This document shows positions 3,363 to 8,534 of a DNA stretch of 11,149 nt, in pieces (the stretch's first letter is position 1; each line of letters begins with the position of its first letter). The position numbers were made by a program, and so were the translations under genes. The DNA comes from a virus: the UHGV virus genome UHGV-0098625; one strand, given 5' to 3'. Below the pieces are notes generated by a model, which did no database searches, had not been told where the DNA came from, and saw only the letters and a program-made list of their open reading frames with translations.

Positions 3363-3506
3363 TTAGTGAATGCTTTTGCTTGATCTCAGTTTCAGTATTA
3401 ATATCCATTTTTTATAAGCGTCGACGGCCTCACGAAACATCTTTTCATCGCCAATAAAAGTGGCGATAGTGAATTTAGTCTGGATAGCCATAATTGTTTG
3501 ATCCAT
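3363..3506 (-). CDS. kil: Kil host-killing / FtsZ-inhibiting protein, 47 aa
   Basis: Internal Met of track ORF 3363..3632: [47 protein letters not shown], which matches lambda Kil. GGAG about 10 nt upstream of the ATG at 3506. The 89-aa extended frame is not used. Confidence 0.9.
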
Positions 3507-3639
3507 TTTTTGGGACTCCTGGCTGATTAAGTATGTCGATAAGGCGTTTCCATCCGTCACGTAATTTACGGGTGATTCGTTCAAGTAAAGATTCGGAAGG
3601 GCAGCCAGCAACAGGCCACCCTGCAATGGCATATTGCAT
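3475..3639 (-). CDS. cIII: CIII, FtsH protease inhibitor that stabilises CII, 54 aa
   Basis: Absent from the ORF track (too short). Hand translation from the ATG at 3639 gives [54 protein letters not shown], stop at 3475..3477, AGGAG RBS upstream. Matches lambda CIII and overlaps the kil start in another frame, as in lambda. Confidence 0.9.
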   Translation of the reverse strand: MQYAIAGWPVAGCPSESLLERITRKLRDGWKRLIDILNQPGVPKNGSNNYGYPD

Positions 3640-3711
3640 GGTGTGCTCCTTATTTATACATAACGAAAAACGCCTCGAGTGAAGCGTAATTGGTATGCGG
3701 TAACGCCGCGC

Positions 3712-4080
3712 TCAGGCGGCCTTGATAGTCATATCATCTGAATCAAATATTCCTGATGTATCGATATCGGTAATTCTTATTCCTTCACTACCATCCATTG
3801 GAGGCCATCCTTCCTGACCATTTCCATCATTCCAGTCGAACTCACACACAACACCATATGCATTTAAGTCGCTTGAAATTGCTATAAGCAGAGCATGTTG
3901 CGCCAGCATGATTAATACAGCATTTAATACAGAGCCGTGTTTATTGAGTCGGTATTCAGAGTCTGACCAGAAATTATTAATCTGGTGAAGTTTTTCCTCT
4001 GTCATTACGTCATGGTCAATTTCAATTTCTATTGATGCTTTCCAGTCGTAATCAATGATGTATTTTTTGATGTTTGACAT
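3712..4080 (-). CDS. ea10: Ea10-like protein (lambda ea10/ssb position), 122 aa
   Basis: ORF track. Size, position between cIII and the N-proximal insert, and sequence (MSNIKKYIIDYDWKASIEIEIDHDVMTEEKLHQINNFWSDSEY...) fit lambda Ea10 as I recall it. GAGGAT RBS upstream of the ATG at 4080. Confidence 0.8.
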   Translation of the reverse strand: MSNIKKYIIDYDWKASIEIEIDHDVMTEEKLHQINNFWSDSEYRLNKHGSVLNAVLIMLAQHALLIAISSDLNAYGVVCEFDWNDGNGQEGWPPMDGSEGIRITDIDTSGIFDSDDMTIKAA

Positions 4081-4100: not shown

Positions 4101-4126
4101 AAAAAATCGCCCTCACACTGGAGGGC
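4101..4126 (-). terminator. intrinsic terminator in the pL operon (tL2-like), just upstream of ea10
   Basis: Plus-strand gccctc-acactg-gagggc at 4109..4126 preceded by aaaaaatc at 4101..4108. On the minus strand this is a GC-rich 6-bp stem followed by GATTTTTTAT. Confidence 0.55.
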
Positions 4127-4232
4127 AAAGAAGATTTCCAATAATCAGAACAAGTCGGCTCCTGTTTAGTTACGAGCGACATTGCTCAGTGTATTCACTC
4201 GTTGGAATGAATACACAGTGCTTATTCGCAGC

Positions 4233-4559
4233 CTACATAATCATTCCGGTTATTATTACCATTTCAATATCACTATCTTTCATAATGATTGGAGTTGAGT
4301 TATCAACTTTACTTTTACTCCATTTTCCTGCATCAGTTTTTACCGCTCCACAATAAGAAAGCCAATCATCATCACAATGTTCTGGAACACTAATTCTGAC
4401 AAGAACTCGTGATAGTGCTTTTTCGATACTTTCATCGCAATTAGCATTTGTGTAATTGCCGTGAGACAATTTCAAATCGTTAACTTCATCTTCATTGGCA
4501 TCAAAAATATAGATTTCAGTCGACTCTGGAACATTTTCATAAACCATTAAAACTTTCAT
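4233..4559 (-). CDS. hypothetical acidic protein, 108 aa (the track's 129-aa ORF begins at an upstream ATG at 4622)
   Basis: ORF track 4233..4622. Preferred start is the ATG at 4559 (MKVLMVYENVPESTEIY...), with GGGG 5 nt upstream and no overlap with the preceding gene. Rich in D/E; AT-rich DNA. No family recognised. Confidence 0.55.
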   Translation of the reverse strand: MKVLMVYENVPESTEIYIFDANEDEVNDLKLSHGNYTNANCDESIEKALSRVLVRISVPEHCDDDWLSYCGAVKTDAGKWSKSKVDNSTPIIMKDSDIEMVIITGMIM

Positions 4560-4606
4560 TTTTACCCCATATTGTTTATGCCAAAAATAAAGGCCGACTA
4601 TGCGTC

Positions 4607-5077
4607 CTAGTAGAATACCCAATTTTCTGTTTCTTGGTTGTGTCCAAAGTTATATTCAATATCTGGTGTTGATGTATCAATATTCTTCATCCCATCAACA
4701 AGAGTTGATACAACAGCCAAATCTTGTTTGATTCTCATTAAATGGTATTTCTTCCGGCGCAATAAACTTTCAATGGCAAGTTTCTTCGTTGGGAATGCAA
4801 AAGATCTTTCTGCATTTTTTGCTACTTTCTTAATTGCATATCTATTTCTCCTTTGTTTCCATTCCTGTAACCACTGATTTGGTACTGGTTTAAAATTAAC
4901 AATCCAATGCGCAGGAACCAACCATGCATAATGGTCTGTCTGATGAAAAGCTATATATTGAAGTGCGAATATTTTTATCCCATCTTCTTCAACTGTCGCC
5001 TGGAATCTCCAGAAAACAGGCATTCCATCATGTTCAGTTTCTGATTCAGGAAAAGGTACGCTCCATGATTTTGTCAT
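4607..5077 (-). CDS. hypothetical protein, 156 aa (basic C-terminal half)
   Basis: ORF track. GAGGTGA RBS immediately upstream of the ATG at 5077. AT-rich DNA. No family recognised. Confidence 0.6.
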   Translation of the reverse strand: MTKSWSVPFPESETEHDGMPVFWRFQATVEEDGIKIFALQYIAFHQTDHYAWLVPAHWIVNFKPVPNQWLQEWKQRRNRYAIKKVAKNAERSFAFPTKKLAIESLLRRKKYHLMRIKQDLAVVSTLVDGMKNIDTSTPDIEYNFGHNQETENWVFY

Positions 5078-5131
5078 ATCTCACCTCAAATAAGTGGTTT
5101 GCTGCGAAAATAAATCCGCTTAAGTTACCTG

Positions 5132-5269
5132 TTATTTATCCCACCAAGTTCCGCATCTATCTATCCAGTTACACCAATCATCGACACTCCATTTTGTTGT
5201 GTCGCATTTTGGCAACTGGCATGAATATCTACCTTCTTTGTAAAGTCGGCGTTTGACTGTCTTGAGCAT
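5132..5269 (-). CDS. putative small Cys/Trp-rich protein, 45 aa
   Basis: Absent from the ORF track. ATG at 5269 preceded by GAGGTGAG, which overlaps the N stop. Hand translation: MLKTVKRRLYKEGRYSCQLPKCDTTKWSVDDWCNWIDRCGTWWDK, stop at 5132..5134. Cysteines at 17, 22, 33, 39 and six Trp. Confidence 0.4.
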   Translation of the reverse strand: MLKTVKRRLYKEGRYSCQLPKCDTTKWSVDDWCNWIDRCGTWWDK

Positions 5270-5277
5270 GGCTCACC

Positions 5278-5610
5278 TCAATCGTAATAAGCTGGAATTG
5301 ATTTTCCGCGTTGCTTCTGGCGGCCTGAGCAAGTCACACCCATTTCACTGCGTGGCTTGCTGTACCATGTGCGCTGATTCTTGCGCTCAATACGCTGCAG
5401 GTTGCTTTCAATCTGTTCGTGGTATTCAGCCAGCACTGTAAGGTCTATCGGATTCAGTGCGCTTTCTACTCGTGATTTCGGTTTGCGATTCAGCGAGAGA
5501 ATAGGGCGGTTAACTGGTTTTGCGCTTACCCCAACCAACAGGGGATTTGCTGCTTTCCATTGAGCCTGTTTCTCTGCGCGACGTTCGCGGCGGCGTGTTT
5601 GTGCATCCAT
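5278..5610 (-). CDS. N: antitermination protein N, 110 aa
   Basis: ORF track. MDAQTRRRERRAEKQAQWKAANPLLVGVSAKPVNRPILSLNRKPKSRVESALNPIDLTVLAEYH.QIESNLQRIERKNQRTWYSKP matches lambda N (arginine-rich N-terminal motif); the C-terminal roughly 25 residues diverge. AGGAG RBS upstream of the ATG at 5610. Confidence 0.93.
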   Translation of the reverse strand: MDAQTRRRERRAEKQAQWKAANPLLVGVSAKPVNRPILSLNRKPKSRVESALNPIDLTVLAEYHEQIESNLQRIERKNQRTWYSKPRSEMGVTCSGRQKQRGKSIPAYYD

Positions 5611-5878: not shown

Positions 5879-5941
5879 AGTATCACCGCCAGTGGTATTT
5901 ATGTCAACACCGCCAGAGATAATTTATCACCGCAGATGGTT
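5879..5941 (-). promoter_or_regulatory. pL promoter with operators OL1, OL2, OL3
   Basis: OL1 tatcaccgccagtggta 5881..5897, OL2 caacaccgccagagata 5905..5921 and OL3 tatcaccgcagatggtt 5925..5941 are identical to lambda OL sites as recalled. Minus-strand -35 TTGACA (5907..5902) and -10 GATACT (5884..5879) with 17-bp spacing. Confidence 0.9.
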
Positions 5942-6130: not shown

Positions 6131-7036
6131 TCAATGCTTATTTGGGAGTGCTGGTTTTTTTATCGACTCTAATAGCTCGGAGGCGTTACTAATCTTTTTG
6201 TTCCCAAGGTAATTTGGCAGTTTTTCCATTGCGTAATTATCGTGTAGCCATTTTCTGAACACGCCAAGTGCCTCAATAGGATAAATCCAAGCTGTTATAT
6301 GCTTATTTGCAGCTGACTGCCTGTAATTTTCGGGGAATAAATGTGGGTACTGCACCCTTTCCCCGAATTTCTCAGATAGCCCATTAGCTGTCCAATACTT
6401 TCCCCAGTGAATTCCAACACTTCCATCCAAAGATGTGGTGTCATCCATTGGGAATCCTCCTCCGATCAGGTTCATGGCAATGTCAGCTATCTCTCTGAAT
6501 ACTGCAAAATGAGTTGTCGGTATCTGATCGTTTAGCTTAATCCTTGCTCTATAGTTCTCGAATGAGATATCTATTGAAGCATTTGGGTTGTAATTTGACT
6601 TTTCATAAATCATTCGCTTAAGCGTGTACTCAGCCAAGCGAACAAAATTACCTATTGCGACTGACCTATCAAAATTGGTGGCATCTAGAGCGTAGTAACG
6701 GAGGATAGCCATGCAAACATAGTCAGGATAAGCATGAGTTTCCACGTTTGAGCTATTTAAAACGCGAGTGTATAGCTTTTCGACGTTATGAAACCCTTTC
6801 TCAGCTAAATACGCAGCTACTTTTTGACCTCTGGGTTTGTTTTTCTCTGTGTTCCAGTTTGATGTGAACACCCTCAGTGGCGTGTCATCAATGCCGCATA
6901 ACTTTGCGAGACCGTAGAGAGTTAGGTAAGGAGTTCCATCATTGAGAACGCCCATAGGAATATCATCAGAAACAACCTCTACTACAGGGAAAAGCTGCAT
7001 TTGATGCAGGGATTCGCTATTGCTGTTAATCGACAT
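6131..7036 (-). CDS. hypothetical 301-aa protein in the rexA/rexB position; candidate phage-exclusion / abortive-infection protein
   Basis: ORF track. ATG at 7036 with AAGGAAA RBS; lies 86 nt downstream of the cI stop on the same strand and is followed by the terminator at 6091..6120. AT-rich relative to cI, N and exo/bet. The N-terminal segment (LFPVVEVVSDDIPMGVLNDGTPYLTLYGLAKLCGID) resembles KilA-N/Bro-N-type domains by eye. Function inferred from position only. Confidence 0.85.
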   Translation of the reverse strand: MSINSNSESLHQMQLFPVVEVVSDDIPMGVLNDGTPYLTLYGLAKLCGIDDTPLRVFTSNWNTEKNKPRGQKVAAYLAEKGFHNVEKLYTRVLNSSNVETHAYPDYVCMAILRYYALDATNFDRSVAIGNFVRLAEYTLKRMIYEKSNYNPNASIDISFENYRARIKLNDQIPTTHFAVFREIADIAMNLIGGGFPMDDTTSLDGSVGIHWGKYWTANGLSEKFGERVQYPHLFPENYRQSAANKHITAWIYPIEALGVFRKWLHDNYAMEKLPNYLGNKKISNASELLESIKKPALPNKH

Positions 7037-8176: not shown

Positions 8177-8255
8177 ATCAAATTAAACCACACCTATGGT
8201 GTATGCATTTATTTGCATACATTCAATCAATTGTTATCTAAGGAAATACTTACAT

Positions 8256-8534
8256 ATGCAACTTACAAGTACTCGCAAGAAAGCGAATGCAATTACAAGC
8301 AACATCCTGAATCGAATTGCTGTACGTGGTCAGCGAAAGGTTGCCGACGCGTTAGGGATTAATGAATCGCAAATTTCGCGATGGAAAGACAGCTTCATCC
8401 CAAAAATGGGAATGCTTCTGGCTGTTCTTGAATGGGGTGTTGAAGACGAGGAGTTGGCGGAACTGGCTAAGCAAGTAGCCAGAATGCTGACAAAAGAAAA
8501 AGCCCCGAAGAACGGCGAATTCTTCGAGGCCTGA
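8256..8534 (+). CDS. cII: CII-like transcriptional activator, 92 aa (not the lambda allele)
   Basis: Track ORF 8196..8534; preferred start is the ATG at 8256 with AAGGA RBS, at the position of the lambda cII start. The conserved core SQISRWK...IPK..MLLAVLEWGV matches the CII family; the N- and C-termini differ from lambda CII. Confidence 0.8.
   Translation: MQLTSTRKKANAITSNILNRIAVRGQRKVADALGINESQISRWKDSFIPKMGMLLAVLEWGVEDEELAELAKQVARMLTKEKAPKNGEFFEA

Follow-up and report, generated by a model that had tools for sequence, protein, structure and literature searches.

Small early proteins of the Pfam family DUF5484 (PF17583), which corresponds to phrog_1871, are found in the early regions of T4-like, N4-like, T7-like, and lambdoid phages, and the members with names are T4 gp55.4 and Sf6 gene 36. 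In T2 and T4, the gene order around it is nrdG, 55.8, nrdH, 55.6, 55.5, 55.4, 55.3, 55.2, 55.1, and 55. The Sf6 record annotates its copy as gene 36 (AAQ12226.1), with the depositor's remark "similar to phage T4 gene Orf55.4," and the gene is also annotated in SfI (SfI_0044), mEpX1, and Bas106 (Bas106_0043, a 54-amino-acid form). Here, we analyze a further copy, a 45-amino-acid open reading frame (ORF) that directly follows the antiterminator gene N in the virus genome UHGV-0098625. We refer to the whole stretch of DNA analyzed, 11,149 nucleotides (nt) in length, as the window. An earlier reading of the window, made from its letters and a list of ORFs (the sequence-only reading), had described this frame as unannotated, coupled to N, and rich in cysteine and tryptophan, and had suggested that it encodes a metal- or protein-binding module, possibly with a role in host takeover or counter-defense.

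Published information on the family is sparse. Our literature search on DUF5484, PF17583, and gp55.4 or gene 55.4 returned no functional study. A preprint lists gp55.4 among the early or middle transcripts of T2. In the CRISPRi-ART data set, T4 55.4 is listed as phrog_1871 with function unassigned, and its knock-down was scored "Not Fit" (score −0.35, P = 0.68), meaning that it carried no fitness cost in the laboratory (PMC11879866). The supplements of two phage accessory-gene screens do not contain the family.

Results and Discussion

The 45-amino-acid ORF is a lambdoid member of DUF5484

The ORF starts with an ATG at position 5269 of the minus strand and runs for 45 codons, and its translation, MLKTVKRRLYKEGRYSCQLPKCDTTKWSVDDWCNWIDRCGTWWDK, is identical to the one given in the sequence-only reading. 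Its length alone is unremarkable: 125 ORFs in the window reach 30 amino acids or more. Homology is what sets it beyond chance: it matches Pfam DUF5484 with 47.4 bits against a gathering threshold of 27 (E = 1.5 × 10−12, residues 5 to 42 of 45) and phrog_1871 with E = 4.1 × 10−22 over residues 1 to 43. We compiled a family alignment of 41 members, from which one candidate (P0039, 1658 amino acids, with five matching "stretches") was excluded as a low-complexity protein. The family signature in this alignment is K6, Y/F10, G13, Y15, P20, T24, W27, W32, I36, D37, G40, and W42. Every one of these residues is present in the window protein, and each is kept in 35 to 41 of the 41 members, save position 10, which is Tyr in 29 and Phe in 11. 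The protein also fits the usual form of the family, a stand-alone phage or prophage protein of about 40 to 70 amino acids encoded in an early or DNA-metabolism region, as it has 45 residues and lies in the pL operon. We conclude that the ORF is a genuine protein-coding gene and, with a confidence close to certainty, that it is the lambdoid representative of the uncharacterized family DUF5484/phrog_1871. This confidence applies to the identity of the gene; our confidence in a mechanism, discussed below, is low.

The frame is conserved in its relatives, in support of the sequence-only reading. Scanning IMG/VR with a degenerate pattern gave 81 copies of the lambdoid clade, 76 of which are intact; of the remaining five, three have chimeric 5′ ends, one is frameshifted, and one carries a nonsense mutation. 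Among the 68 copies of exactly 45 codons, there are 9 synonymous and 10 non-synonymous segregating changes, giving a ratio of non-synonymous to synonymous polymorphism (pN/pS) of approximately 0.23, or an estimated 0.3 or so when codons 30 to 37, which the search pattern had fixed, are excluded. This excess of synonymous change fits selection on the protein. The deep conservation of the family is a stronger argument for a protein than pN/pS. Amino acid identity with members from T4-like, N4-like, T7-like, and other phages is 40 to 55%. By tblastn, the family was found in 1055 phage records; most belong to T4-like phages, whose hosts include Escherichia, Klebsiella, Shigella, and Yersinia, and share about 50% identity. 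In addition, an exhaustive HMMER search over 1.84 billion cluster representatives gave 48 matches at E < 10−3. The contexts in which members were found include Planctomycetes, Gammaproteobacteria, and marine phages, a breadth that speaks for a partner conserved across many hosts. Scanned against genome contigs, a degenerate DNA pattern covering the whole family hit 24 loci, about the number expected by chance, and just four of them (L095, L098, L101, and L109) score as real members with the family hidden Markov model (HMM). For three longer, fusion-like members (P0038, P0042, and P0047), the metagenomic contigs were too short or the neighboring genes carried no annotation.

The description of the ORF as unannotated is right for RefSeq E. 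coli and wrong for several phage records. The ORF is carried by 143 of 5426 complete E. coli genomes, and in all 40 of the carriers listed nothing is annotated beneath it; in E. coli H6, for example, there is an empty gap between N and the next gene. By contrast, the gene is annotated in the four phages named above, and the exact protein of the window is present in NCBI nr (EFF0474694.1 and others) and has been seen on 105 contigs, with the Sf6 allele on at least 998. Its absence from the ORF track supplied with the window is thus due to the annotation pipeline and not to novelty. The gene thus belongs to a family that had been catalogued before.

The gene is placed for early expression with N

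The claim that a strong ribosome-binding site overlaps the stop codon of N was borne out (Table 1). The N stop codon, TGA at 5278..5280, is overlapped by the Shine-Dalgarno (SD) sequence, and the gap between this stop and the ATG measures 8 nt. The SD pairs with the 16S rRNA 3′ tail through 7 bp at −11.5 kcal/mol (13-nt anti-SD), which ranks second among the 12 genes tested in the window, behind cro, and within the top 1% of all 20-nt windows. The junction of N stop and SD is identical in 55 of 77 related copies. A pL-like promoter upstream would drive N together with the 45-amino-acid gene, and no terminator-like site or hairpin was found between this promoter and the ORF; the first terminator-like hairpins on the minus strand past pL lie at 4128..4107 and 3687..3670. 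Placement for early expression with N, which the sequence-only reading had proposed, is therefore supported by both the conserved junction and the lack of a terminator after pL. From the arrangement of stop codon and SD, we infer that the protein is probably made early, together with N, via translational coupling or re-initiation.

Such coupling is not obligatory, since in mEpX1 (L126 2860-3000) the gene stands behind an HK022-type Nun gene, a terminator hairpin, and a remnant of about 90 nt of the 3′ end of a lambda-type N. This locus is a visible recombination scar, from which it can be seen that the cassette moved with the tail of N.

The four cysteines are unlikely to form a metal site

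The sequence-only reading had noted four cysteines and six tryptophans and suggested a metal-binding module. The cysteine spacing was given correctly, as C17-x4-C22 and C33-x5-C39, while the tryptophans number five (residues 27, 32, 35, 42, and 43). A Cys4 zinc- or metal-binding module would rest on this pattern in the window allele and on the moderate conservation of Cys17, which is present in 26 of the 41 family members and replaced elsewhere by Leu, Phe, Met, Val, or Tyr. Conservation ends there. Cys22 is found in 5 of 41 members (usually Val or Gly), Cys33 in 4 (usually Ile or Val), and Cys39 in 6 (usually Asn or His); in T2 gp55.4, all four cysteines are absent. At three of these positions, relatives mostly have a hydrophobic residue; position 33 is conserved as I/V, and position 35 as an aromatic residue. 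Even in the closest lambdoid clade, including the dominant allele represented by Sf6 gene 36, residue 39 is Tyr in almost all copies, and Cys39 was seen in 2 of the 81 IMG/VR copies in addition to the window and mEpX1.

The geometry argues in the same direction. There is no CxxC knuckle, as the spacings of four and five residues contain neither CxxC nor CxxH pairs, and in the predicted structure Cys33 and Cys39 would lie inside or at the end of a helix. A Pfam scan of the window protein at E values up to 1 returned no zinc-finger family. We therefore reject a Cys4 module as very improbable; the pattern is confined to a minority allele and is an allele-specific accident rather than a conserved metal site. 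One metagenomic member (P0027, 73 amino acids) has a DnaJ-type CxxCxGxG motif before its DUF5484 domain, which scored below threshold (17.7 bits vs 32.7). Should this motif be genuine, any metal would be bound by a module distinct from the domain itself.

A predicted alpha-beta-alpha-beta mini-domain

AlphaFold2, supplied with the family alignment, predicted a small alpha-beta-alpha-beta domain with a confidence (predicted local distance difference test, pLDDT) of 83. Its elements are a helix at residues 2 to 11, a strand at 14 to 16, a helix at 28 to 38, and a strand at 39 to 41, where model residues equal the ORF number minus one. The product is thus predicted to be a cofactor-free mini-domain of about 40 residues, whose tryptophan-rich core would be formed by the conserved and mostly aromatic or hydrophobic residues Y10, Y15, P20, W27, W32, I36, and W42. 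A sequence search of the PDB with the family profile returned nothing, Foldseek against the PDB gave no meaningful match (best E = 6.8), and a structure search of BFVD recovered uncharacterized members of the same family only.

A putative docking module for the replication machinery

A clue to function comes from Cbunavirus (Schitoviridae). In phages EK8 and CB1, a DUF5484 domain makes up the C-terminal 45 or so residues of the family-A DNA polymerase, in a continuous frame. These tails score 46 bits (EK8, L087 2501-2638) and 43 bits (CB1, L089 3001-3102) against the family HMM, and 20 bits (E approximately 5 × 10−4) against Pfam DUF5484, which is below the Pfam cut-off of 27. A reciprocal tblastn search from the polymerase tail recovered the lambdoid homologues as well as 16 further records at 60 to 80% identity; 17 of the records matched are Pectobacterium phages, and CB1 itself infects Pectobacterium. 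The literature searched contained no description of the fusion. Primase and DnaB-type helicase genes flank the family gene in two further, independent neighborhoods, an N4-like contig (L119) and the Alteromonas podophage H4/4. Elsewhere, it lies near a DNA ligase gene (L092 and L121), or near genes for endonuclease VII and UDG, and on contig L095 the neighbors look ParB-like, PD-(D/E)XK-like, and SSB-like by our reading of their translations rather than by tool matches.

Taking together the polymerase fusion, the two primase-helicase neighborhoods, and the conservation across phages of distant hosts, we tentatively propose, with low confidence, that DUF5484 may be a portable, cofactor-free docking module for DNA-replication or polymerase machinery, or for a universally conserved host factor which that machinery uses. 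In Cbunavirus, the phage DNA polymerase would carry the domain at its own C-terminus; other phages would provide it in trans, as a small accessory protein without which they can grow in laboratory hosts, with the lambdoid copy being made early from pL. The dispensability of T4 55.4 is the reason to regard it as an accessory rather than a core component. We hold more doubtful the specific suggestion that the stand-alone T4-like and lambdoid copies act in trans on a universal replication factor (e.g. SSB, the clamp, the helicase, or Pol I), recruiting or diverting it.

Several observations weigh against this proposal. We found no experiment or publication that assigns a function to the family. 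The polymerase fusion is limited to one genus and may represent a single evolutionary event, and the neighborhood evidence is weak, because any early gene tends to adjoin genes of DNA metabolism. The T4 gene lies between nrdH and gene 55, outside the replisome cluster, and the absence of a fitness defect upon its knock-down indicates that it is not a core part of the replisome (PMC11879866). In G7C-like phages, the gene follows that for the phage RNA polymerase II, and the lambdoid copy borders a slot that can hold the anti-restriction gene ral. To our knowledge, neither T4 nor lambda encodes a family-A polymerase.

Alternative explanations

The main rival is that the protein is a host-takeover or counter-defense factor, an early protein that inhibits a component of host defense, DNA repair, or restriction in the manner of Ral, Gam, Kil, or CIII. 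We consider this possible, if rather unlikely. The pL operon is a home for small host-directed proteins (cIII, gam, and kil occur in the window and its relatives), and the gene adjoins a variable slot that holds orf28/ral in Sf6, SfI, and 36 IMG/VR loci. Dispensability of the T4 homologue in a laboratory host would be expected of a conditionally useful accessory gene. Carriage is limited to 143 of the 5426 complete E. coli genomes. We also take T4 55.1 and 55.2, neighbors of 55.4, to target host proteins. On the other hand, counter-defense proteins tend to be patchy and fast-evolving, whereas DUF5484 keeps a set of nearly invariant residues in phages of widely differing lineages and in hosts of different phyla, and a pure inhibitor would hardly be expected to be fused to a DNA polymerase. 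The family's absence from the two accessory-gene data sets also speaks against this explanation, as does the lack of any PADLOC match for the 45-amino-acid protein at E values up to 1, though PADLOC does not cover anti-defense genes. A role in transcription appears quite improbable. Here, the protein would bind host or phage RNA polymerase and tune the transition from early to late transcription or N-dependent antitermination, which would suit its position directly after N in the window, the location of the T4 gene upstream of the late sigma factor gene 55, and a 46-amino-acid member in G7C-like phages (Gamaleyavirus), whose gene overlaps the 3′ end of the gene for the large subunit of phage RNA polymerase II by 14 nt. 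However, an hhalign comparison of the family alignment with the E. coli omega subunit, RpoZ, returned a probability of 0.1%, lambda has N without the 45-amino-acid gene, and the mEpX1 copy, lying behind Nun, a terminator, and a mere remnant of N, is untied to N function. The G7C-like members are located at L127 2504-2644 (IME11) and L128 1801-1938 (24-32N), and the latter is unannotated.

It could also be argued that the frame yields no functional protein and persists for another reason: to space N from the downstream slot, to deliver ribosomes, or to serve as a boundary for recombination. Two copies of TTGAGGTGAG flank the frame, the locus is a mosaic boundary at which several relatives carry truncated or chimeric copies, and RefSeq pipelines leave the frame uncalled. 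Against this stand the 40 to 55% amino acid identity with phages as different as T4-like, N4-like, and T7-like ones, the synonymous excess, and the confidently predicted fold, and we regard this explanation as extremely unlikely. The docking module thus remains our working proposal, at the low level of confidence given above.

Genomic context of the lambdoid gene

The window is a lambda-immunity prophage segment (Table 1). Leftward from pL, it encodes N, the 45-amino-acid gene, a 156-amino-acid gene (phrog_1636), a 129-amino-acid ORF (phrog_4658), a DUF2528 gene, and cIII, followed by gam, bet (RecT family), and exo (YqaJ family). Rightward from pL come a BstA homologue, cI, cro, cII, an O-like gene, and a DnaB-type helicase gene. 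The BstA homologue, a 301-amino-acid gene at 6131-7036 on the minus strand between pL and cI, matches the BstA abortive-infection entry of PADLOC (PDLC02356, E = 1.3 × 10−105) and has no Pfam match; it occupies the place of rexAB in lambda. Two of the listed starts are probably too early: the cII match begins at residue 21 of a 112-amino-acid ORF (8196-8534, plus strand), and the phrog_4658 match at residue 22 of the 129-amino-acid ORF (4233-4622, minus strand), whose listed TTG start overlaps the end of the 156-amino-acid gene.

Table 1. Coordinates of features at and around the 45-amino-acid gene in the window
Feature	Position	Strand	Evidence
45-amino-acid gene, DUF5484/T4 gp55.4/Sf6 gene 36 family	5132..5269 (including stop codon)	minus	ORF, Pfam, PHROG, nr
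Shine-Dalgarno GAGGTGA of the 45-amino-acid gene	5273..5279	minus	Sequence, anti-SD pairing, junction kept in relatives
Lambda-type antiterminator N, 110 amino acids	5278..5610	minus	Pfam N36 (E = 1.6 × 10−26), alignment with lambda N
pL-like promoter, TTGACA-17 nt-GATACT	5879..5907	minus	Consensus scan (10 of 12 positions matching)
Conserved 54-nt spacer ending in the second TTGAGGTGAG (5080..5089)	5078..5131	minus	Kept in IMG/VR relatives
156-amino-acid gene, slot occupant in the window	4607..5077	minus	phrog_1636 (E = 2 × 10−111)
cIII thermoregulator	3594..3652		Rfam

The TTGAGGTGAG repeat occurs twice in the window, on either side of the 45-amino-acid gene. In different prophages (IMG/VR loci L005 to L084), at least eight unrelated genes begin directly after the 54-nt spacer: lambda orf28 in 36 loci, the 156-amino-acid gene in 13, and six others, encoding proteins of 83, 207, 87, 149 (apparently hydrophobic), 80, and 60 amino acids. 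In SfI, orf28 is followed by ral, and the orf28/ral slot is also found in Sf6. Because the occupants differ after a constant spacer, the 45-amino-acid gene forms the edge of a variable accessory slot and is untied to its downstream neighbor. The 156-amino-acid gene of the window has no functional tie to it. This occupant is the same gene as L0079 of phage 933W, occurs in many Stx-converting phages behind unrelated N alleles, and has no match in Pfam, NCBIfam, or PADLOC.

In lambda, the 45-amino-acid gene is absent, and homology between lambda and the window extends no further than the 3′ end of N. We considered a clean deletion of the cassette between the flanking repeats in lambda, whose N ends in ..GKSIPLI, and rejected it, as the nucleotide alignment shows that homology simply ends at N. 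In a 54-amino-acid variant (Bas106_0043; L001 2881-3045; nine IMG/VR loci), the stop codon is lost through a short deletion, and the frame runs on into the spacer; the protein ends in ..WWERIYFR(G/S)KPLI, at a TGA inside the SD of the next gene. We judged the resemblance of its "PLI" end to the C-terminus of lambda N to be a coincidence at the nucleotide level. Erwinia phage phiEt88 has a 48-amino-acid member (L125 3474-3620, plus strand, 65.7 bits) in its early-left operon, between the repressor and exo/recT. It is unannotated, and an antisense ORF, gp44 (3387-3743), is annotated over it instead, probably as a mis-call.

Implications

The analysis mostly closes the lead raised by the sequence-only reading, as the ORF is a catalogued gene of unassigned function and its cysteines are not a metal site. 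Overall, that reading described the feature largely accurately and was right about its meaning only in part. It does point to a systematic gap, in that RefSeq E. coli annotation leaves out a gene conserved in more than 1000 phage genomes. The family is among the more widespread uncharacterized small proteins of T4-like phages, which means that a role established in T4 or a lambdoid prophage could be extended to many other phages. For a family without a literature, the fusion to a polymerase and the two primase-helicase neighborhoods provide a concrete and testable first hypothesis.

Comparison with known systems

Proteins of the same operon, timing, and similar size class are found in lambda, where the genes for Ral, Orf28, CIII, and Kil lie within or border the variable stretch that separates N from cIII; they share no sequence or family relationship with the 45-amino-acid protein. 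The Cbunavirus polymerase tail is related in sequence, carrying the same domain signature (...YKCPKPAEDTSKWKPKDWVKYVDAHGTW...) as the 45-amino-acid protein, and differs in that it is fused to a polymerase of about 880 amino acids, whereas the window copy is stand-alone.

T4/T2 gp55.4 is a member of the same family, with 44 amino acids, approximately 50% identity, and the same K, Y, P, W, W, I-D, G, W signature. It is likewise an early gene packed tightly with its neighbors, and its function is likewise unassigned. Unlike the window gene, it belongs to a virulent phage, where it sits between nrdH and gene 55, and the T2 protein lacks cysteines at the four positions. The closest counterparts are Sf6 gene 36 and its equivalents in SfI, mEpX1, Bas106, and E. 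coli prophages, which are the same gene, with 45 amino acids and 96 to 98% identity to the window protein. The Sf6 group shares with the window the place 8 nt after a lambda-type N, the SD junction, and the downstream spacer. Two differences stand out: residues 4 and 39 are Lys and Tyr in the common Sf6-type allele but Thr and Cys in the window protein, and the gene that follows is orf28/ral in Sf6 and SfI and the 156-amino-acid gene in the window.
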